A stretch of 46,234 bases of DNA, from the IMG/VR virus record IMGVR_UViG_2718218309_000006; one strand, given 5' to 3'. Positions 2,059 to 34,386 of this stretch are shown here, piece by piece. Position 1 is the first letter of the stretch; each line of letters opens with the position of its first letter. The translations under genes and the position numbers were made by a program. Source of the DNA: a virus (lineage: Duplodnaviria; Heunggongvirae; Uroviricota; Caudoviricetes). The notes beneath the pieces were generated by a model. That model was not told where the DNA came from. It made no database searches and saw only the letters and a list, made by a program, of their open reading frames with translations.

Positions 2059-4896
2059 TTAAATACTCCCCGCGTTATACCACGTCCCATTAATGCAATA
2101 CTGAATTGGCCTTGCCTGAGTTGTATCAATTAATTCATCACGGTTTCCGTTAACTGAACCCGTAACGACATAACCTGACCTGTCAGACCAGCCGGGGCCT
2201 TTCCATGTCTGAACAGATGACAGACCGCCAAGGCGAATACCTGTAATAAACCTTGAGTTACATTCTGCCTGCGTATATGCACCAACATCCCCCGCAGAGG
2301 GTTTGCGTGTTGTGGTGTAAAACTCTGACCAGTTAGCTTCAAAGCCATAACCATCACGCGCTGAACGATAAAAAATACCGCCGTTCCTGTAATTCACGCG
2401 GAACTGTACAGCAGGGCAACTCCCCGCATTCATATTGAAGTGGAGGATTAATGTCGATGCACCACTGATATCTGCATCATAAACACCGCTATTCCAGTTC
2501 CAGCCAACAGCTTTATCATTTGCGACCCTGCGTCCTGTTTGCCCTAAAGCAAATGCAGGCTGCTGGTTTTTCGTGTTGTAGTCTCGTCGCCAGCCAGGAG
2601 CGTAAGCATCACCATGATTAATATAAGTGAATTGAGCGTTAGTAATTCCGCCACCGCTGGACGTGCTCGGCGTAGTAACGCGTATGGTCATTGCGCCGCG
2701 AGTGCCAATAACTTCCACCACAGCACCTGCAAGACAAATATTTCCGCAACCTGTATCTGTAATAACCTTATTATTTGCATAAGCCCATGAGCCTTTGCAC
2801 ATCCAGTAAGGATGGTTAAATGCCCCCTGACTCTCCAGCCACGAAATAAATTGCGCAGTTGTCCAGACCTGACTATCGCCACCAATATTCAGCCATGCGC
2901 TATATGCGCGGCAGGCACCAATGTTTTTGGTGAAGGTATCTTTTCCCGGAATATCTGCGCCGTTCTGGTTTTTCTGTAATGCGCCAGAAGCCTGATTTAC
3001 CGTTTCCTGTAAACCGAGGTATTCGATAACGGCAGCAACGGTCGATTTCGCAAGAATATCCCGCCCGACTTTTGTCAGGGTTGCCAGGCTGGCGACATCA
3101 TTCCCCGTAAAATACGGAAACCTGTCTGCCGCAGTAGCAAGCCCGGCCAGCGCCGTCAGGGTGGCATCTTTCGGTTGCTTACCCGCAAGCGCGTTAGTCA
3201 TGGTGGTCGCAAAATTCGGGTCGTTGCCCAGCGCCGCCGCTAACTCGTTCAGCGTATTCAGTGCGTCAGGCGACGAGTCTACAAGGGCGGCAATCGCGGC
3301 CATCACATAAGCCGTACTTGCGATCTGAGTATTATTAGTACCTTTTGGCGCAGTTGGCGTTGTTGGCGTTCCGGTCAGTGCAGGACTATTTAAGGGCGCT
3401 TTCTTGTTCGTTTCATCCATTACCGCCTTAACCGCTTTTGGTGTCGCAGCCAGCGTTTCAGACGGGCTGTTAGTGGCGCTACTGAGCTGAACCACACCTT
3501 TTTTCGTCGTACTCGCATCTTCCAGAGATACGGCATCAGCAATATCCTCTGCCCGTTTTGCCGCTGTTTCGGCACGCGTTGCCGCGGATTCAGCAGCAAC
3601 TTTGCTCTGAGATGCCGCCGTCGCACTGCCAGCAGCCTCTGTTGCCTTCGTGGATGCCGTCGTGGCGCTGCCCTTCGCTGCTGACGCTTGTCTGGTCGCC
3701 TCATCTTTTGAAGCAGACGCCGATGAGGCCGATGACGACGCCGAACTGGCTGACGATGCGGCAGCCGTTTTTGAGGATTCTGCGCTGGTTTCCGACGCTT
3801 TCGCGTTCGTTTCGGATGTCTTCGCTGCGGAAGCTGACCTCGCTGCTGCGCTGGCCTGCTCAGTGGCTTCGCCAGCCTTCGTTGTGGCTGTTGAAGCGGA
3901 TGATGCGGCGCTTTCTGCCGATTTTCCGGCGGCGGTGGCACTGGCTGAGGCCTGCCCGGCACTTGTTGACGCGGCGCTGGCAGACGACGCAGCCGCTGTT
4001 TTTGAGCCTGCCGCAGCCGAGGCGCTCTGTCCCGCTGCCGTTTCAGAAGACCTGGCGTTTGTCTCAGACGTCTTTGCCGCCTTCGCGGAATTGCCTGCCG
4101 CCGTTGCCGAGGAAGCGGCACTACTGGCGCTTGATGATGCGTTCGTTTCTGATGATTTCGCTGCCTCTTTTGAGGCCGCCGCATCCCGGGCTGAGGTGGC
4201 TGCTTCTGACGCCTTCGTGGTCGCGGCGGATGCAGAAGTGGCTGCTGATTGTTGTGACGCTGCCGCATTCGTTTCTGACGTTTTCGCCGCACCGGCACTG
4301 GTAGTTGCCGCGCTTTTTGAGGACTCTGCAGCAGCAGCACTTTTTGCTGCTTCACGGGCCTTTGTCGATGCCGTTCCTGCGCTGGAAGACGCTGACTGAG
4401 CCGACGACGCGGCCTGTCCGGCTGACGTGCTGGCTGCGCGTGCTGAGCCTGCAGCATCAGTCGCATGGGTTGCCGCCTCACGGGCTGATGTGCTGGCATC
4501 GCTGGCTGACTTCTTCGCGGCTGCCGTGTTCTGTGCCACCGCGGACGCGTTACGCGCCACCTCTTCCACCATCAGCTCAAAACGGCGCAGTGCCTCCGGA
4601 CGGGCATCATCCTCCGTCATGGCACCGAGAAAATCATTCAGCGTACCGGGCCGGGAATCTTCATACACGGTGATGGTCCCGGCATGTGACGGCGGGAATC
4701 CCTCCACCAACAGAATAACGCTGTACTGCCCGTACTCAACGTCCATGCTGTAACGCCCGGCTTCATCCGGATTTTCTGAGGCCAGCGTGTTCACCACCAC
4801 CGTGGTGCTGTTACGTTTTGCTTTCAGCTGGATTGTGCAGTTCTGTACCGGTTTTCCTGTGCCGTCTTTCAGTACACCTGAAATCTTTACTGCCAT
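2059..4896 (-). CDS. stf: Side tail fibre protein Stf (constant N-terminal part lambda Stf-like, long Ala/Ser/Thr-rich repeat, Mu/P1/e14-like variable C-terminal domain)
   Basis: N-terminus MAVKISGVLKDGTGKPVQNCTIQLKAKRNSTTVVV matches lambda Stf as recalled; ORF track starts at GTG 4902, ATG at 4896 more likely. Confidence 0.9.
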   Translation of the reverse strand: MAVKISGVLKDGTGKPVQNCTIQLKAKRNSTTVVVNTLASENPDEAGRYSMDVEYGQYSVILLVEGFPPSHAGTITVYEDSRPGTLNDFLGAMTEDDARPEALRRFELMVEEVARNASAVAQNTAAAKKSASDASTSAREAATHATDAAGSARAASTSAGQAASSAQSASSSAGTASTKAREAAKSAAAAESSKSAATTSAGAAKTSETNAAASQQSAATSASAATTKASEAATSARDAAASKEAAKSSETNASSSASSAASSATAAGNSAKAAKTSETNARSSETAAGQSASAAAGSKTAAASSASAASTSAGQASASATAAGKSAESAASSASTATTKAGEATEQASAAARSASAAKTSETNAKASETSAESSKTAAASSASSASSSASSASASKDEATRQASAAKGSATTASTKATEAAGSATAASQSKVAAESAATRAETAAKRAEDIADAVSLEDASTTKKGVVQLSSATNSPSETLAATPKAVKAVMDETNKKAPLNSPALTGTPTTPTAPKGTNNTQIASTAYVMAAIAALVDSSPDALNTLNELAAALGNDPNFATTMTNALAGKQPKDATLTALAGLATAADRFPYFTGNDVASLATLTKVGRDILAKSTVAAVIEYLGLQETVNQASGALQKNQNGADIPGKDTFTKNIGACRAYSAWLNIGGDSQVWTTAQFISWLESQGAFNHPYWMCKGSWAYANNKVITDTGCGNICLAGAVVEVIGTRGAMTIRVTTPSTSSGGGITNAQFTYINHGDAYAPGWRRDYNTKNQQPAFALGQTGRRVANDKAVGWNWNSGVYDADISGASTLILHFNMNAGSCPAVQFRVNYRNGGIFYRSARDGYGFEANWSEFYTTTRKPSAGDVGAYTQAECNSRFITGIRLGGLSSVQTWKGPGWSDRSGYVVTGSVNGNRDELIDTTQARPIQYCINGTWYNAGSI
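3005..3030. other. Candidate Gin/Hin/Pin-family 26-bp crossover site (gix/pix-like) inside stf
   Basis: TTCCTGTAAACCGAGGTATTCGATAA; recalled Mu gix is TTCCTGTAAACCGAGGTTTTGGATAA; encodes junction peptide EYLGLQE on the minus strand. Confidence 0.6.
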
Positions 4897-5630: not shown

Positions 5631-8600
5631 TCAACGAATACTGATGCCGGAAGCGGCTTTTTTGGTCACAATCACCGTACAGTCGGTGATATTGCCTGCC
5701 CCCTGATTGCCTTTCTGGAAAATCTTAAACTCCAGAGTGACGCTTCCCCTGCCACTCGGCATATCAATAACTGCACTGTAACTACCGGGAATGGCCCCTT
5801 TAGTTTCTCTGGATGCGATTAATACGCCGTTTTTGCGAACTTCAAAACCATAACCCGTGTATCGCGTGCCTCCTGGGTTATTTCCGCTCCCCGGATCGTC
5901 ATACGCTATACCGTTAAAAATAATGGGCGGAATAATAATCTGGCGGTCAAAGTTATGATCATCGCTGATGGTGACTGTAACCGTACCGTTTGGTGTTTCC
6001 GTGTTACCCCACGTACCGACTTTTTTCGGGAAGGCTTTTGATACAGCTTTAACGAAATCTCCTCTGACCTGGGTCGCCTCCAGCATGCCCTTAATCGTAC
6101 AGTTCTGGTTAATCGTGACATTGTTGAGCGTTCCTGAGTTCGCATTCACACTGCCACTGATATCCGCATTTTTCGCCGTCAGTCTCCCGTCTGATGTCAG
6201 GGAAAATGCCGGAGGATTACCGCCGCTGGTAATGGTGGGGGCCGTCAGGCGTTTCAGGAACACTTCATTCATGAATATCTGATCGCCCTGACCAACAAAC
6301 ATCGGCTTTGTGTTGCCATTCGCAGGATTAATCATCGCAATCCTGTCTGCTGCCAGCAGCACCTGACTCTGCATGCCGTCAGGGGTGTTCTCAATACCGG
6401 CACCGATACCCGCAATATAAAGGCGTCCGTCCTGCATCTGCTGCAGCTTCACTGCCCACATGCTGTTCAGGTTATTATTTGTATCAACCTGAACCTTCTG
6501 TATCTGCTGGATCGCTGCACTCTGGTCTTCCAGTTTCTTATTGACGGTCTGTGTTATTTCATTGCTGACATCCGTTATGGACGTCCTGATTTCAGTCAGG
6601 TCAGGCGCAAGCTGACCGTTATCAATCTGCGTCCACAGCTCCTGAGCCAGATGGGTTTTCCCTATCTCGCCTTTGAAAAAATCCAGATAGCCTGATGCAT
6701 CATCACTCGGCTGACCGACAGCCTCCACGAATGCCGATTTGCCAACGGTGTTCACACTGCGAACGTAAAAATAATAATCATGGCCCGGTTTGATATTGAT
6801 ACTGGCGGCTATCCAGTACAGTGCCGTACCAAGATAACGCGCGCTGGTTTCAACCTGCCTGATATCCGCAATCCGCTTTTCCGAGAACCAGAACTCAAAC
6901 TGTACCGTCGGATCATAAACCGCAAGATGCGGCGTGGCGGTTATCTGAAAATACCCCGGTGTCAGCTCAATCTGCGACGGCGCTGCCGGTGCGGCAATCC
7001 GGAACGATACCGATGCCGGATCGCCCTGCTGCCCCCACGCATTTACTGCCCGGACTGTCAGCCTGTAGTTCCCCAGCGCCAGTTGTGTGAAGCGGTATGT
7101 GGTTTCCGCCGTCCGGGCTGTGCTGACCAGCCGCTCACTGCCGTCATCCGCTGCCACGGTCAGGCGAAGCATAAAGCTCACCCCCTTCACCACCTTCGGC
7201 GTGTCCCAGCGGGCCAGTACCTGATATTCCCCGCTGTCTGCGGTGACTTCGGCAGTCAGGTGCTGCACCGCTGGCGGCGTGACACCATTCACCGTGCCGC
7301 TCTGGTCGCCGTCAAAGTGCGCCCCGTTATCCACGATGGCCTCTTTTTCCGGTACATGCTGCACGGCGGTGATGGCATACATACCGTCGTCGTTCTCACG
7401 GATACTCACGCAGCGGAACAGGCGCTGGCGCAGCGTCGGCAGCTTCAGCCCCCACACGCTGTATCCGGCAACGCCGTCAGGAACACGGCTCACTTTTACC
7501 TTCACGCCGTCGGTGACGGACTGGACCTCCACGCTGACCGGATTACCCTGACCGTCAACCAGGCTTATCAGCGTGGTACCGGAGGATGGCAGCGTGATTT
7601 CACGGTCGAGCGTCAGCGTCCGGGTCTGGCTGTTCACCGCCAGCACGCGCCCGCCGGTGCTGATACCCGCATAGTCATCATCGCAGATTTCAATGACATC
7701 CCCCGGTACATGGCGAAGCCCTTCCGCACCCACGCTGAAGTCCACGGTCTGCGTTTCCAGCAGTTCCGTTTTAATCAGCCACAGCCCGGCGCGGTGCGCC
7801 TGCCCCCGGCTGGTACAGCCAAAGGCATCCATCTTCGTGACGTTACGACCGTAACGGGCAATGGCCTGCGTATCTTCAACAAGCTCTGTCGCCGTCTCCC
7901 AGCCGTTATCCGGGTCAATCCAGTTCACCTCAACGGCATTATGGCGGTCTTTCAGGGCGCTGAAACTGTAGCGGAACGGCGCGCCATCATCCGGCATCAC
8001 CACATTACTGCGGTTATAGGCCCACACCTTATCCGACGGTCGGTCCTGCACGAACGTCAGCGTCTGCCCGTTCCATACCGGCATACAGCGCATCGCCGAG
8101 CAGAAATCACTGAGCACATCCCACGCCTTGCGCTGTGTGGTCAGGTACGCATTACAGGTGATGCGCGGCTCCGTGCCGCCAAAGCCGTCCGGCACTGACT
8201 GGTCGCAGTACTGGCCGATGACATACAGCGCCCATTTGTCCACATCCGCCGCACCAAGACGTTTTCCCATGCCGTAGCGCGGGTGGGTCAGCATATCCCA
8301 CAGACACCAGGCCATGTTGTTGCTGTATGCTGGTTTTAACGTTCCGTCCCAGATACCACTGTATTGCCGCGTCTGCGGGTTATAGTTCGACGGCACCTGC
8401 AGAATGCGCCCGCGAAGATGATAATTACGGCTCACCTGCTGGCTGCCGAACTGCTCCGAGTCCACCTGCACGCCGACCAGTGCCGTGTTCGGGTAGCCCT
8501 GTTTCACATCGATGATTTCGGTGTATGACGACCAGAGCGTTTTGTTCTGCAGCTGGTCTGTGGTGCTGTCCGGCGTCATCCTGCGCATCCGGATATTAAA

Positions 8601-26401: not shown

Positions 26402-26606
26402 AACGTTTACCTACCATTTGAAATGAACCTTTGCCGCACAGGAAACCAGCCCACCGAGGCTCGCCAGCACTAACTGGTATCCTCAAAGGCCCATTCCAAA
26501 GGGGCAGGTTCGGTGTAAAAAAAAACATGCGTTGCGGTACGCATTTATTGCAAAAAAGCCCCGCATCGCGAGGCTCATTAAATGGACTTTGTGATTTGCA
26601 AAAAAA

Positions 26607-27044
26607 TTATTTCAGACATTGCGTCCTGATGTACTCCTGCAGGTAGTTAACCTGCGCGGTTATCCTGTCGATTCCACTTCGGAGACGGTAATAATTGAGT
26701 TCAGCATCTGCTGTAAGTCTTGGGCTTTCTCCATCGCCCATGCTGCTGGCTCCGGTCTTTGACTTTGCACAGGAGGCGGCGACTTGCAGCCGCTTACGCC
26801 CAGCAGAAACATCATCACGGAGACTTTCGATAGTCGCGTTAGCATCAGCAAGTTCCTTTGTATATCTGGCATCGAGTTCTGCTACGTCACGTTGACGCTT
26901 CTGCATGTCAGCGATGATGGATGTGGCTTTGTCGCGCTGTTCTTTGTAGGTCATGGCGTTATCACGGTAATGATTAACAGCCCATGACAGGCAGACGATG
27001 ATGCAGATAACCAGAGCGAAGATAATCGCAGTTACTCTGCTCAT
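26607..27044 (-). CDS. Rz: Spanin inner-membrane subunit Rz
   Basis: Starts [30 protein letters not shown] with N-terminal TM helix and coiled coil; start overlaps the R stop. Confidence 0.88.
26660..26845 (-). CDS. Rz1: Spanin outer-membrane lipoprotein Rz1, embedded in Rz in the +1 frame
   Basis: [20 protein letters not shown] lipobox followed by Pro-rich segment ([16 protein letters not shown]); start codon uncertain. Confidence 0.55.
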
Positions 27045-27538
27045 TGCTGCCCCCACAAACAGACTTCACGCTCAATCTCACGGCGAGTCATCAGCCCTTT
27101 CCATTGCTTACCGCCAGCATATGTCCAGCGACGTAGCTGATCACATGCGCCTTTGATATCGCCCTGGTTTATTTTGCGAAGAAGCGTCGATGTTCTGAAA
27201 TTGCCAGCACCCACGTTGTAAACGAATGAGTAAAGAGCGCCGCGCGTTGTTTCCGGTATATCGACTTCGATATACGGGTTAATTTGCCTGGCGACAGTGG
27301 CAAGGTCTTTATTCAGGAGGGCTTTGCACTCTGCTTCGGTATACGTTTTACCGAGCATGATGTCTTTTCCTGTATGCCCGTGACATACAGTCCATACACC
27401 AACAATATCTTTGTATGGTATGTAGCTGACACCTTCCAGACCATCGTTACCACTTGGGCCAGTGATTAACACTGATGCTGTAGCAATTGCTCCGCCACCA
27501 ATAGCAGCAGCAACGGCTTTTCGTAATGATGGAGGCAT
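27041..27538 (-). CDS. R: SAR endolysin R (T4-lysozyme fold, phage 21 type)
   Basis: 165 aa, [44 protein letters not shown]... like recalled P21 R with signal-anchor-release N-terminus. Confidence 0.9.
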
Positions 27539-27753
27539 TATTCACCTCTCGCAGCCTTGCGCTTATCTTCTTTAATCTTGAAATAAAGGTTTGTCAGGTA
27601 CGTCAGCAGGCCAAATACCAGGCTACCCAGCACACCTATTGCTGCCCACTGTGAGGGCGTGACTTTATCGAGCAGCTGTAAAAACCAGTAACCGGCACTA
27701 CCTGCTGAGGTGCCATAGGCGACACCCGTTGTTAACTTATCCATGGATTTCAT
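27538..27753 (-). CDS. S: Pinholin S (phage 21 S21-like) with dual-start motif MKSM
   Basis: 71 aa, [71 protein letters not shown]; SD GAGGTGGGG upstream. Confidence 0.88.
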
Positions 27754-28341
27754 AACCCCACCTCGCAGACAAAGCGGGTGTAAATTGAGGGAATACAACG
27801 TATCGCAAAAAAGCAGAAACGTAACAGACTCGGAGTCAGTGAATAACTCAGGTATTAAGTTATCAGCTAATATCGAGACTCAAAAAATGGAAAAACCAGC
27901 TCGACGGCGGGTTTAAGCTGTGTGACGAAGTAACCACTCTTAACAGCATAACCAATTTTTTACGTACGTAAACCACTGAATGATATTTATGAGAATGCTA
28001 CCGAGTGTTCAAAACACCACCACAAATACATAAGAAAACCTCAACAAATAACCAATAAATAATTTCAGAGGTTATTTTTAGTTGATTTAAATTAAACTGC
28101 CGAATTATAGAACCCCCATAAATAACAGCCATTAATATAAATTAGCTAATAGGTTTATTTTTGTTCAAATAAGAGCCATAAATAGGTTTCGATAGAAAAA
28201 GTTCAGATAAAAATAGAGATCTACTTCACAAATTAAATGAGAAACTAAAACTTACATCTTGAAATAATCACATTGATTAGATGAATATTTATCGCGCAGT
28301 GACATCATTTTTTAATAATAGTTCAAAAAAAAGGGCTCACG

Positions 28342-29424
28342 ATGAAAAAATTAACAGTGGCAATTTCTGCTGTAGCTGCATCAGTACTGATGGCGATGTC
28401 TGCTCAGGCAGCTGAAATTTATAATAAAGACAGTAACAAGCTGGATCTGTACGGGAAAGTTAATGCTAAGCACTACTTCTCCTCTAATGATGCAGATGAT
28501 GGTGATACTACTTATGCCCGTCTTGGCTTCAAAGGTGAAACCCAAATCAACGATCAACTGACTGGTTTCGGTCAGTGGGAATATGAATTCAAAGGCAACC
28601 GCGCTGAATCTCAAGGTTCCTCCAAAGACAAAACCCGTCTTGCATTTGCAGGCCTGAAATTCGGTGACTACGGCTCAATCGATTACGGCCGTAACTACGG
28701 TGTAGCATACGACATCGGTGCGTGGACTGACGTTCTGCCAGAATTCGGTGGCGATACCTGGACCCAAACAGATGTATTCATGACTGGTCGCACCACAGGT
28801 GTTGCAACTTATCGTAACAACGACTTCTTTGGTCTGGTTGATGGCCTGAACTTTGCAGCTCAGTATCAGGGCAAAAATGACCGAAATGAAGTAACTGAAG
28901 CTAATGGCGATGGTTTCGGTTTCTCAACTACTTATGAGTATGAAGGATTCGGCGTGGGTGCAACCTATGCTAAATCTGATCGCACTAATAATCAGGTTAT
29001 CTACGGTAACAACGGTCTGAATGCTTCTGGTCAAAATGCTGAAGTATGGGCAGCTGGTCTGAAATATGATGCGAACAACATCTATCTGGCCACCACCTAT
29101 TCTGAAACCCAGAACATGACTGTTTTTGGTAATAACCATATTGCCAACAAAGCACAAAACTTCGAAGCTGTTGCACAATATCAGTTCGACTTCGGCCTGC
29201 GTCCATCCGTTGCTTACCTGCATTCTAAAGGAAAAGACTTGGGTGTTTGGGGTGATCAGGACCTGGTTGAATATGTTGATGTAGGTGCAACCTATTACTT
29301 CAACAAAAATATGTCCACTTTTGTTGACTACAAAATCAACCTGATTGATAAGAGCGATTTCACGAAAGCATCTGGCGTTGCTACCGATGATATCGTTGCT
29401 GTAGGTATGGTTTACCAGTTCTAA
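28342..29424 (+). CDS. Outer membrane porin, OmpC/OmpF/PhoE family (Lc/NmpC-like phage-borne porin)
   Basis: 360 aa, signal peptide [23 protein letters not shown] then [17 protein letters not shown] and C-terminal ...VAVGMVYQF; opposite strand to the flanking Q and lysis genes. Confidence 0.92.
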
Positions 29425-29562
29425 TTTGATTACTAAAAGATATGTTGTGGGAGGCTTTGCCTCCCCAACATATAAGTGGCTCCCTCAAGCCACTTCCTTT
29501 AGAAGCACAACCTTGCTTCTAACTATACAAACCTTCTGTTATATATTACCCTTTATTTTTGG

Positions 29563-29590
29563 GGGCGTTTCAACGCCCCATTTTTAATAA
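29563..29590 (+). terminator. Rho-independent terminator downstream of the porin gene
   Basis: GGGGCGTT-TCA-ACGCCCC followed by ATTTTTAAT. Confidence 0.55.
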
Positions 29591-29612
29591 CTTTTAGTAA
29601 ATAATTGGCGTA

Positions 29613-29996
29613 TTAATTAGAGTTATTAACAACGATATCCATCTCTAACCGGATATCTAATGCCATTAACATCCCTTCAATTATGCCCTCAGCCTTCTGT
29701 AACCTTTTCCCGATATAACCATCAGAGCAGCAATGCTTACCTGCCAGTGACATGAATGTCATACCGACTACATAATAATCTACTAATAAATCGTGCAAAT
29801 CGCTGTTGTTCTTTTTCAGACGGGCCATGCACCCGCAAATGATCATCGCGTCATCGTCACAACATTGCGGGCGAGATTTTACTTTTGAAGTAATTAATCC
29901 CTTAAAACCGGCGGCAATGGACGACCAGGTCACATCTTCATGATTATTAGCCGCCCACGCTCCCCAACGCTCAAGAACCATCTGAATATCACGCAT
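29613..29996 (-). CDS. Q: Late antiterminator Q (phage 82 / DLP12 QuuD type)
   Basis: 127 aa from [50 protein letters not shown]; matches DLP12 QuuD as recalled. Confidence 0.88.
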
Positions 29997-30081
29997 CAAC
30001 TTACTCCACAAAAATCAGACCAGAACGCCAATTACAAGCAAAAATCAACGAAACAGTATTAGTTGATTGTTATCTCTGACT

Positions 30082-30204
30082 TCATACTCCTGCTCCTGTC
30101 AGGGTTTTGGCGTAATTCTTCAGTATTCGGTAATCGGTCAAAACAGAACCGGGGAAACGATATAAGCGCAGACGCCCCCAGCGGTGGCGAAGACGTTCTG
30201 CCAT
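30082..30204 (-). CDS. Small ORF in the ylcG position between rusA and Q
   Basis: 40 aa, MAERLRHRWGRLRLYRFPGSVLTDYRILKNYAKTLTGAGV; not in ORF track (under 60 aa). Confidence 0.3.
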   Translation of the reverse strand: MAERLRHRWGRLRLYRFPGSVLTDYRILKNYAKTLTGAGV

Positions 30205-30218
30205 ATAAAACTCAAACA

Positions 30219-30581
30219 TCATTCATTCCCCATTTCGGTGATGGTCAGTTCCAGCCTCCCACCTTTGGTAACAGGCATCTTCACAACGCGGTAATCAACG
30301 ACCTGAGCATCATCCAGCCAGAAACCTGCTTTAGTGAGTGCGTCAAAAGCGGCTTTTTGCAGATTATCCAGGTCACGGCGACGGCGATCCGGCATGTGGC
30401 ACTCAATGCGGATTTTCACAGGCATAGCCAGGCCGATATCCAGCATTGCGTTTTTAATGATTCGGGCGACGTTATCGCGGTATGCCTGCCCCTCTGCGCT
30501 GACGTGCGTGCGCCCGCGATTATGGCGGTAATAGCGATTATTGCTCGGAGGCCAGGGTAATGTGATGCTGTAGGTATTCAC
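30219..30581 (-). CDS. rusA: Holliday junction resolvase RusA
   Basis: 120 aa, [54 protein letters not shown]... Confidence 0.92.
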
Positions 30582-30868
30582 GCCTTAATAACCCCCTCTT
30601 TCAGCCAGATAACCTGTGTTCTCGCCATACCTTCCAGCGCGCATTCTTTTGCATATGCAGCATCGACAAAATGTGTGCGGCGGTCGATTTCGTCGTGGCA
30701 GGCAGAACATGCAATGGTGGCAATCAGGTCTGGCGGTTTGGTACCGGTGCCGCACAATCCAGTCAGCCGGATATGTGCCAGTACAGACGTTTCAGGGTTG
30801 CCATTACATACGCCAGGGATTCTTACCTGGCATTCCCGACTACGCGCTGCTTTTCTCAAATCAGCCAT
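30578..30868 (-). CDS. YbcO-like protein (DUF1364, Cys-rich putative nuclease)
   Basis: 96 aa from [42 protein letters not shown]; start overlaps the ninE end. Confidence 0.8.
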
Positions 30869-31031
30869 GATTCCTCCTTGCTGCCAGTCGCAACCATTTT
30901 TTATCAACCAGGCTGGCGGTATATCCGAGCAGTGTTGGTATTTCGGAAGGCTTCAGCTCCGGTTTACGCTTACGACGATCTGGTACTCTGTAGATGTGTC
31001 CGTTCATGACACGAATAAGCGGTGTAGCCAT
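30861..31031 (-). CDS. ninE: NinE
   Basis: 56 aa, [56 protein letters not shown]; not in ORF track (under 60 aa); TAATG overlap with the ybcN stop. Confidence 0.7.
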   Translation of the reverse strand: MATPLIRVMNGHIYRVPDRRKRKPELKPSEIPTLLGYTASLVDKKWLRLAARRNHG

Positions 31032-32859: not shown

Positions 32860-34386
32860 TCAAAAATAAACCTCACCATCAACCATATATTTGAGAGTAC
32901 TTATCGCCTGCTGGGCGGATATTGTTTTCATTAAAGGATAGTGTTTAAAAACAATGCCATTCATAAAATAGATATCACAGGTTTTATTATCTGTATTGAT
33001 TATGATTTTTTCGAATGTTTTATAGGCAAGTGTACGACATAGCTCTCGCCCATTTTTACTGGTTAAGTCAATAGCATGAAAATCACCAAGTGAACTCACC
33101 GCTTTACTCTTCAAAGTTTTTAATGATACAGAAGCCCTTCGTAATTCCTTATCTAATACTCTGATTTTTTCTGCTATAGCGGTAACTTCAGGCGCAACAG
33201 ATAATGCAGCAATTAAATTATTAATTTTCATCTGGAGCTCAATAATTTTCAACTCTAAAGTTTCATTAGCATCTTTCTTGTTTTCAACTGGTTGGATTTT
33301 ACTACAATTAAAAAGCAACTCATTAATGATATTATAATCAACCAAATCTCTCTTTATTGATGGCCTGTCACATCGATGCAGTCTTCTCATCGGACAAACA
33401 TAATAGCCATGCAAACTTCCAGATACCGCATGAACAATCATGGTATTACCACAAGCCTCGCACTTCATAACTGTTCGAAGTAGATTTATCAACATAGGAT
33501 TTTTGCTACTATTGCTAATACCAAAAGGTGCCAACCGAATTTCCTGCACAGCGTAAAACAAATCATCTGATATGACTCTGGGATAATAGCCAGCGATTTC
33601 ACTTATTCCTTTACCTCTTGCACGATATGAAGGTACGCATATACCTATCAGAGCTTTATTCGCTAATAATTTTTCAATTACAGAAGGTCCCCATGCACTT
33701 TCTTTTCCTGAGAAATTCTTTACAGCATGATCATTTAAATACTTGGCTATTGCATTCAATGAGCGCCTTTCCATCCTGAGTTTAAAAATTAGCTCAATAG
33801 TTTTCACCCTGTCGGGGTCTGGAACAAAAGCCGTTCTTTTGTCATCCAATGAGAGCCATCTCGGACAAGACGCCGTCATAATCGTGCCTGACTCCAGTGC
33901 ATCCTGCCGTTTTTTCTTCCATGATAATTTAACCCGACTTGACTTTATCTCGCTTTCTTCATTTGCCCTTTGTGCTATAAGTATGGCTTTTATTAATGAA
34001 TATGGCTCATTCAATGAGTCAATATTATAGACTGTATTATCGCAAAGAGTTATAACATCAATACCGTGATTCAAAATCAATTTCAGACGCTCAATCGCTT
34101 CACCGACTTTTTCTCTTGAAAGTCTGTCCAGACTTTCAACTAACAATGTAGTCCCTGGCAATATATAACCATGTTCTATAGCATCTAAAAATTCCGAAAA
34201 AGCTCCTGATTGTGCATGCTTTCCATTGAATGCGCTTAACCCCAAATCTTCATACGTTACGGTATCAAGGTAATAATCACTATTTACCTTTAGCCATTCA
34301 GTAATAAGCCTTCTCTGGCGGTTTAATGAATCACCAGACATCTGACCTGGTGATGAAAATCGCATATATGCTATGGCTTTTTTCAT
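32860..34386 (-). CDS. Large serine recombinase (YbcK-like)
   Basis: 508 aa; resolvase-type N-terminus AIAYMRFSSPGQ...LLVESLDRLSR, recombinase domain, Cys-rich zinc-ribbon (CEACGNTMIVH...YYVCPMRRLHRCDRP), coiled-coil C-terminus. Confidence 0.85.
   Translation of the reverse strand: MKKAIAYMRFSSPGQMSGDSLNRQRRLITEWLKVNSDYYLDTVTYEDLGLSAFNGKHAQSGAFSEFLDAIEHGYILPGTTLLVESLDRLSREKVGEAIERLKLILNHGIDVITLCDNTVYNIDSLNEPYSLIKAILIAQRANEESEIKSSRVKLSWKKKRQDALESGTIMTASCPRWLSLDDKRTAFVPDPDRVKTIELIFKLRMERRSLNAIAKYLNDHAVKNFSGKESAWGPSVIEKLLANKALIGICVPSYRARGKGISEIAGYYPRVISDDLFYAVQEIRLAPFGISNSSKNPMLINLLRTVMKCEACGNTMIVHAVSGSLHGYYVCPMRRLHRCDRPSIKRDLVDYNIINELLFNCSKIQPVENKKDANETLELKIIELQMKINNLIAALSVAPEVTAIAEKIRVLDKELRRASVSLKTLKSKAVSSLGDFHAIDLTSKNGRELCRTLAYKTFEKIIINTDNKTCDIYFMNGIVFKHYPLMKTISAQQAISTLKYMVDGEVYF

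Follow-up and report, generated by a model that had tools for sequence, protein, structure and literature searches.

The window, i.e., the whole stretch of 46,234 nucleotides of viral DNA analyzed here (IMG/VR record IMGVR_UViG_2718218309_000006), is a lambdoid prophage in which the late genes are carried by the minus strand. A porin gene having the opposite orientation lies between the gene encoding the antiterminator Q and that encoding the holin S:

27538-27753, minus strand: holin S (EssD homologue, P21-type), which opens the late lysis cassette, with its ATG at 27753 and an ORF open to 27798 (Pfam Phage_holin_2_1, E 3.5e-35)
28342-29424, plus strand: porin gene of the NmpC/Lc/OmpD type, 360 aa (ORF and Pfam Porin_1)
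29613-29996 (or to 30011), minus strand: antiterminator Q (QuuD type), 127 aa (Pfam PF06530, E 4e-53)

The O104:H4 sequence identical to that of the holin S gene is labeled essD in RefSeq (216 bp), and the lysozyme and Rz genes identified in a Pfam profile search are also carried by the minus strand. Q shows 78% amino acid identity with the Q of VT2-Sakai, a 933W-type phage, and a distant match with the Q21 structures; its gene matches 360 phage records. The original prediction, according to which an OmpC-family porin is located between two minus-strand genes, Q and S, was borne out by the ORF at 28342-29424 (+) and by the Pfam matches. The same prediction placed nmpC of DLP12 in the same antisense position, and the order observed in K-12, quuD(+)-nmpC(-)-essD(+), does indeed correspond to the relative layout of the window. 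The Q(-)/porin(+)/S(-) layout is also present in the sequenced phages ev099 and Kati.

The Pfam profile Porin_1 (PF00267, E 3.6e-152) spans residues 29-360 of the porin, which correspond to profile positions 1-337, and porins in the PDB are matched at E values of about 1e-135. The score obtained with the NCBIfam OmpC subfamily amounts to 515 bits (cut-off 484), and the scores obtained with the PhoE and OmpF equivalogs are below the cut-offs. The signal peptide (23 aa) is exactly that annotated in PA-2; the mature protein begins with AEIYNK and ends with YQF, i.e., with an aromatic residue. Judging from these sequence features, the protein is a general diffusion porin belonging to the NmpC/Lc subgroup rather than OmpC, OmpF, or PhoE. 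It shows 90% identity with the Lc protein of PA-2, from which it differs in two surface-loop regions where the mismatches are gathered, including a 5-residue difference in length. The earlier designation of the gene as a lysogenic-conversion porin agrees with this identity and with the NmpC/Lc type of the gene, which is to be classified as a moron with a predicted promoter and a predicted terminator of its own.

The 1814-bp segment comprising the porin gene shows 100% identity with prophages carried by O104:H4 and by further strains of E. coli, and 99.6% identity with phage ev099. It is an ordinary segment, present in nearly half of the complete E. coli genomes (2465 of 5426, presence being defined as at least 80% of the segment covered at a single place). 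The PA-2 lc record (GenBank J02580; Blasband et al., 1986) shows 91% DNA identity across the whole 1.8 kb and resembles the window in the position and orientation of the porin gene between Q and the lysis genes; the two do not differ in the promoter core, in either of the annotated CRP sites, or in the PR'-like block described below. In K-12, nmpC is broken by IS5, whereas the copy present in the window is intact. Chromosomal orthologues were found in E. albertii, Salmonella arizonae, Citrobacter, Enterobacter, Lelliottia, Huaxiibacter, and Klebsiella. That of E. albertii shows 90% protein identity with the porin and the others show 73-80%, as in the case of the ompD-type porins of Salmonella, Citrobacter, and Enterobacter. 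These chromosomal ompD-type genes share the promoter core of the window (the TCACA half-site, GAAACTTA, and TTGAA), but differ from it in their 5'UTR and in the distal upstream sequence.

On the other side of the porin gene, the 188 bp extending from the porin stop to the Q stop show 95% identity with the quuD-nmpC spacer of K-12, which is the IpeX region of DLP12, and include the following features:

29425-29585, plus strand: porin 3'UTR, homologue of the DLP12 IpeX sRNA region (179/189 identity with the K-12 quuD-nmpC spacer)
29562-29585, plus strand: intrinsic terminator of the porin gene, GGGGCGTTTCAACGCCCC-ATTTTT, the last of four hairpins (terminator scan)

The porin 3'UTR folds into four hairpins, with a fold z-score of -7.7. 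IpeX has been described in reviews as a 167-nt DLP12 RNA which originates from the porin promoter, is processed out of the porin transcript, and represses ompC and ompF. The region at 29425-29585 fits this description and may have the function of IpeX in this prophage as well. A search of positions 26500-31000 against Rfam with a permissive threshold gave zero matches; thus neither IpeX nor a 6S-like late leader is represented there by a curated family.

The strand opposite to the porin gene might be transcribed during the lytic cycle if the early rightward transcript initiated at PR and antiterminated by N were to extend through Q; this antisense transcription would silence the porin and IpeX, and would not be needed for lysis. 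The porin gene is located directly downstream of Q on the strand of the early transcript, and the only signals present between the two genes are of the hairpin type, which N-modified polymerase is expected to ignore. On the other hand, the strong minus-strand hairpin at 29470-29443, which is followed by AUAUCUUUU, could halt unmodified polymerase. We regard transcription of this kind as possible, albeit rather doubtful.

In the reading preferred here, in which the porin gene is a moron transcribed from its own promoter, the elements controlling its expression would be located in the 543 bp upstream of the gene (27799-28341). The GC content is 31.9% in this region and 27.8% between 28000 and 28341, as compared with 50.8% in the whole window, so that the AT-rich upstream region of roughly 540 bp announced in the original prediction was confirmed. 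The elements identified there are as follows:

28213-28233, minus strand: CRP site annotated in the PA-2 record (feature 1363-1383), identical sequence, mapped by alignment
28251-28270, plus strand: OmpR-like 20-bp box CTTACATCTTGAAATAATCA, overlapping the -35 hexamer TTGAAA (28259-28264), the best matrix match in the upstream region
28259-28296, plus strand: porin core promoter consisting of the -35 TTGAAA (28259-28264), an 18-nt spacer, and the -10 GAATAT (28283-28288) (promoter scan)

When the upstream region was aligned with those of PA-2 and K-12 nmpC, it was found to be nearly invariant from about 130 nt before the ATG onward, and this was also the case with a copy showing only about 80% identity overall. 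The OmpR box, CRP site, -35 and -10 hexamers, and 5'UTR of DLP12 nmpC are those of the window, save one nucleotide in an A-run. Among 14 orthologous promoters, the most conserved bases are AAACTTA (28248-28254) and the TTGAA of the -35 hexamer, and the chromosomal orthologues have also kept the TCACA half of the CRP site.

The porin transcript is likely to begin at the G located at about 28296 (or 28294), which would give a 46-nt 5'UTR. This position was deduced from the "distance to TSS 43" given for nmpC in a ChIP-exo study, the spacing of the CRP site, and the G at which nmpC transcription starts in K-12, as confirmed by RACE (2024 study of K-12). If transcription starts at G 28296, the center of the ChIP-exo peak will be 43 nt upstream, which equals the value in the published table in magnitude, the sign used in the table being ambiguous. 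The CRP site at 28213-28233 would then be centered about 72-73 nt upstream of the start, i.e., in a class I position. In K-12, PnmpC has been reported to possess two operators through which CRP activates it, and to be subject to repression by OmpR, IHF, and MprA (2024 study, PMC11677980).

The motif originally compared with the OmpR-binding sites of ompC and ompF is the 15-mer CTTACATCTTGAAAT. It does occur upstream of the porin gene, at positions 28251-28265, i.e., 2 nt away from the previously announced location (about 28253-28267). Searching for TTTACATTTTGAAAC with up to 3 mismatches yielded 4 matches in the window, as compared with 1.66 expected. With a position weight matrix based on the F1-F3 sites of ompF and the C1-C3 sites of ompC, the 20-bp box was the top-scoring site of the upstream region and ranked 14th among the 92430 positions in the window, and its score was attained in 562 of 1000 shuffles of the 543-bp region. 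The mismatch search and the ompC/ompF matrix therefore both fail to set the motif apart from random sequence. The box is identical to the C1 site of ompC at 14 of its 20 positions, and shows the 10-bp periodicity of GAAAC/TTACA-like elements. The arrangement differs between the two types of promoters: ompC and ompF carry three tandem boxes between -100 and -40, whereas the window carries a single box over the -35 hexamer. The resemblance previously noted does not rise above chance when the sequence is considered alone.

The data available on K-12 are more informative in this respect. The 20-mer is identical in K-12 (positions 5897-5916 of locus L003), and nmpC was listed as a confirmed target, repressed by OmpR, in a genome-wide ChIP-exo study. 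The peak detected at nmpC (576106-576166 in older K-12 sequence coordinates, signal-to-noise ratio 2.26) was converted into current coordinates using an offset of 777, which was calibrated on the peak and promoter sequence of ompF. It maps to positions 28223-28283 of the window, with its center at 28253, and the identical 20-mer lies within it. In an ompR knockout of K-12, the expression of nmpC increased from 19.0 to 46.5 FPKM (a 2.4-fold rise). Since the K-12 20-mer is inside a published ChIP-exo peak and nmpC expression rises in the ompR knockout, OmpR control of this promoter can be said to have been known already. It is well supported, in the form of repression exerted at a single box over the -35 hexamer, and by analogy OmpR would act in the same way in the present prophage. 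Host OmpR control, as postulated in the original prediction, is therefore upheld with a change of sign: the porin promoter would be repressed by OmpR, the annotated activator being CRP, unlike promoters of the ompC type, which OmpR activates.

Alternatively, the box might be merely the -35 region of an AT-rich promoter to which OmpR does not bind specifically, its likeness to ompC C1 being coincidental. This would be in line with the fact that 56% of the shuffled regions reach its score, with the excess of mismatch-tolerant matches over the number expected, with the variability of the C of TTACAT in the chromosomal orthologues, and with the weakness of the ChIP-exo signal at nmpC. We nevertheless consider this explanation unlikely, given that the K-12 peak is centered on the identical sequence and that nmpC is derepressed by the ompR knockout; in addition, no element of the promoter is better conserved across genera than AAACTTA, which is similar to a half-site of the GAAAC type, and the A-C/A-T dinucleotides at 28244/45, 28254/55, and 28264/65 recur every 10 bp.

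Between the porin gene and S, the minus strand carries a block which is homologous to the PR'-qut-terminator module of phages of the 933W/H-19B type:

27972-27891, minus strand: whole homologous block, 82 nt
27972-27967 and 27950-27945, minus strand: -35 TTTACG and -10 TATGCT of the block, separated by a 16-nt spacer (homology)
about 27916-27880, minus strand: hairpin and T-tract following GTTAAGAGTGGTTAC (homology)

In the VT2-Sakai record, a late promoter (TTTACG-N16-TATCAT), a Q-utilization site, and a terminator hairpin are annotated at the 3' end of Q; the block is identical to this annotated sequence at 62 of its 82 positions and to that of an O157 prophage at 69 of 82, and the similarity drops to background on either flank. 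The PR' start of the Sakai Stx phages has been mapped by dRNA-seq and Term-seq at a distance of 258 nt from tR', in agreement with the interval that separates the annotated promoter from the second of the terminators annotated for VT2-Sakai. The block was detected in 362 phage records, most of which are those of Stx phages, where it is located at the 3' end of Q; this count is similar to that of the records matching this type of Q (360). The 13-mer TAAGAGTGGTTAC has a single occurrence in the window, just after the -10 hexamer, at 27930-27942(-). It also occurs once in each of the porin loci that extend over this region (PA-2, O104:H4, K-12, Kati, and ev099), and is likewise found in VT2-Sakai and in the Sakai loci. 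The spacing of the hexamers (16 nt) and the presence of this 13-mer after the -10 are the same in the window and in the Stx module. No similarity was found between the Q-proximal spacer and the Stx PR' module.

Since the homologous block is located between the porin gene and S, and the Q of the window is 78% identical to that of VT2-Sakai, the late transcript most likely starts near 27938(-), at a point downstream of the porin gene and about 185 nt ahead of S. The porin cassette would then most likely have been inserted between Q and the promoter targeted by Q. The original prediction held that late transcription antiterminated by Q must read about 1.6 kb of the porin region in antisense before reaching S. 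This claim found no support, as the PR'-like block is situated between the porin gene and S, and late transcription probably need not cross the porin gene at all. The porin promoter and the predicted PR' are divergent, and their -35 hexamers are about 290 bp apart.

The locus can be compared in this respect with the StxS locus of Stx phages of the 933W/H-19B type, with which it shares the homologous Q and the elements of the 82-nt block (the -35 and -10 hexamers, the start region TAAGAGTGGTTAC, and the first hairpin). The 3' end of Q and the block overlap in Stx phages, where the cargo (tRNAs and stx) is located after tR', inside the late transcript. In the window, unlike what occurs in the Stx phages, a divergently transcribed porin cassette measuring 1.64 kb comes between Q and the block. 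A counterpart of the tR' terminator present at +258 in the Stx phages was not found in the window, and the 185-nt leader preceding S contains no other clear terminator. In K-12, 16 bp of the leader upstream of essD are missing in comparison with the window, and the PR'-like block is followed by an intact CCCGC/GCGGG hairpin with a T-tract after it. In the window, a G-to-T change (CTGG, as in PA-2, in place of the CGGG of K-12) swaps this stem for a weaker alternative (about -9.5 kcal/mol, as compared with -16.4 kcal/mol in K-12), so that the hairpin is only a putative terminator here.

The consensus promoter score was 7.6 in the case of the PR'-like block and 9.3 in that of a Q-proximal sequence, TTGAAA-19-TAATAT. 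As the sigma-70 scans, whether performed with the consensus or with a matrix, did not tell these two candidate locations apart, the placement of the late promoter is based on homology. A minus-strand start at about 28292 in the porin 5'UTR, read from the "-121 to +650" and the primers given in a previous study (PMC7918800), was also considered and rejected; these figures agree with -650 to +121 counted from the essD ATG and therefore locate no start site.

The origin of the Q-proximal spacer can be traced using a prophage remnant present at the yedK locus. This remnant has kept the porin cassette together with the Q-proximal spacer (28013-29711), and the PR' block and the lysis genes are gone. 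Based on this content, the Q-proximal spacer travels with the porin gene, and the PR' block travels with the late genes. The idea that the porin gene at yedK might be an ancestral chromosomal gene was rejected, since the 3' end of Q is still present over about 100 nt and the DLP12 genes ybcM, ybcL, and emrE flank it. The remaining alternative, a late promoter placed directly after Q in the 188-bp spacer, with about 1.6 kb of antisense reading and interference between porin expression and lysis timing, recalls the position of PR' next to Q in lambda and the Stx phages and could make use of TTGAAA-19-TAATAT and of the strong minus-strand hairpins of the spacer, one of which has a U-rich tail; in Lambda_2E9, moreover, Q may be directly followed by a terminator and then by a lipocalin gene in antisense orientation. 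This alternative is nevertheless very improbable because the homology with the 933W-type PR' block is at 27972-27891 and not in the spacer, because the spacer corresponds to the porin 3'UTR/IpeX region and has remained with the porin gene in the yedK remnant, from which Q, PR', and the lysis genes have been lost, because the candidate has a 19-nt spacer and a -35 sitting in the loop of the porin terminator, and because the consensus scan gave no minus-strand promoter in the spacer. A point against the placement near 27938 is that the 6.4-kb locus examined in Lambda_2E9, the Q of which is 88% identical, does not contain the PR' 13-mer.

We return to the divergent arrangement, in which the segment is a classical lambdoid moron of the NmpC/Lc type, with a promoter run by CRP and OmpR, an IpeX 3'UTR, and a PR' block located beyond the porin gene and facing the other way. 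This reading, which we hold to be highly probable, draws on the gene and sequence identities observed, on the homology and boundaries of the block, and on the mapping of the K-12 data onto the window. The porin gene would be transcribed from a sigma-70 promoter activated by CRP from the annotated site, about 72 nt ahead of the start, and OmpR bound over the -35 hexamer would be consistent with the repression reported. The transcript would consist of the 46-nt leader, the porin ORF, and the structured 3'UTR (IpeX), and would end at the intrinsic terminator. The IpeX produced from it would lower the levels of OmpC and OmpF in the host, in keeping with the literature. Q-modified polymerase would begin transcription about 185 nt before S and move away from the porin gene.

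The porin gene itself, its position, its control by CRP and OmpR, and the sRNA in its 3'UTR are already known, having been described from the 1980s to the 2000s. The present data bear rather on how the locus should be annotated: the porin cassette would not be cargo inside the late transcript, in contrast to stx, and since it was probably inserted between Q and the promoter targeted by Q, it should not be modelled as such. Given their divergent promoters, the porin gene and the lysis genes controlled by Q would be expected to be transcribed independently of each other.

One further feature concerns the start region of the predicted PR' transcript:

27918-27938, plus strand: second "CRP site" of the PA-2 record (feature 1067-1087), mapped by alignment and coinciding with +1 to +21 of the predicted PR' transcript

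A broader scheme can be imagined, in which N-antiterminated antisense transcription shuts off the porin and its sRNA at induction, the weakened hairpin after PR' makes basal lysis leakier than in DLP12, and the divergent promoters, along with the CRP-like site on the PR' start, couple porin expression and lysis to the physiology of the host; taken as a whole, this combination seems to us distinctly improbable.

The PR'-like block (27891-27972, minus strand), which is homologous to the late promoter, qut and terminator region of 933W-type phages, overlaps and is followed by a hairpin, and a second structured element lies directly upstream of the holin gene S:

27890-27916, minus strand: hairpin 3' of the PR'-like block (counterpart in the DLP12 prophage of E. 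coli K-12 at about 6250-6275 of locus L003)
27754-27790, minus strand: stem CACCCGCUUUGUCUGCGAGGUGGGG, directly upstream of the S start codon

Sequence comparison showed that the hairpin sequence, CCCGCCGTCGAGCTGG, is the same in the window and in phage PA-2, whereas the K-12 version reads ...GCGGG. A single G-to-T change disrupts in the window the CCCGC/GCGGG stem of the K-12 hairpin and gives rise to a weaker alternative stem, CAGCTT/GAGCTG, the T-tract after the stem being unchanged. The folded segment has an energy of about -9.5 kcal/mol in the window, versus -16.4 kcal/mol in K-12. No further clear terminator was found between the inferred PR' start and S. The stem CACCCGCUUUGUCUGCGAGGUGGGG overlaps the likely ribosome-binding site of S; possibly it regulates translation, as such structures are known to do in lambdoid S genes.

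The 1986 record of PA-2 marks a distal "CRP site" that maps to 27918-27938 of the window and covers +1 to +21 of the predicted PR' transcript. The same region is annotated as Q-utilization in the 933W-type Stx phage VT2-Sakai.

Cargo genes after Q were also observed in other phages. In a prophage of E. coli O157:H7 strain 7409 (L008), a gene encoding a CPBP-family intramembrane protease, on the same strand, separates Q from the PR'-like block (3001-3082 of that locus), so the porin phages are not alone in having cargo between Q and the promoter on which it acts. In phage Lambda_2E9 (L010; 2302-2826, downstream of Q), the Q of which is 88% identical to that of the window, a lipocalin gene (blc) lies directly 3' of Q on the opposite strand and is followed by two more cargo genes and then S. 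A hairpin between Q and blc resembles the Stx-phage late terminator tR' (GCCAGCCTCCCC...), and the conserved PR' 13-mer of the window (27930-27942, minus strand) was not found in the 6.4-kb Lambda_2E9 locus.

Some E. coli strains carry an extra porin cassette between yedK and fliE, beside ybcM, ybcL, and emrE (L006, NZ_CP148382.1). This counterpart of window 28013-29711 shows about 91% overall identity in the ORF and 3' region and about 80% in the upstream region. Of Q, only some 100 nt at the 3' end are left, and the PR' block and the lysis genes are missing. The locus has the appearance of a decayed DLP12-like prophage that has kept the porin along with other cargo.

An intact ORF has the replication genes on one side and the ybcN-Q block of genes on the other:

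32860-34386, minus strand: ORF of 508 aa, beginning MKKAIAYMRFSSPGQMSGDSLNRQ

Judged by eye, its product resembles large serine recombinases. For the matching stretch of the O104:H4 prophage, the annotation shows nothing but fragments and pseudogenes.
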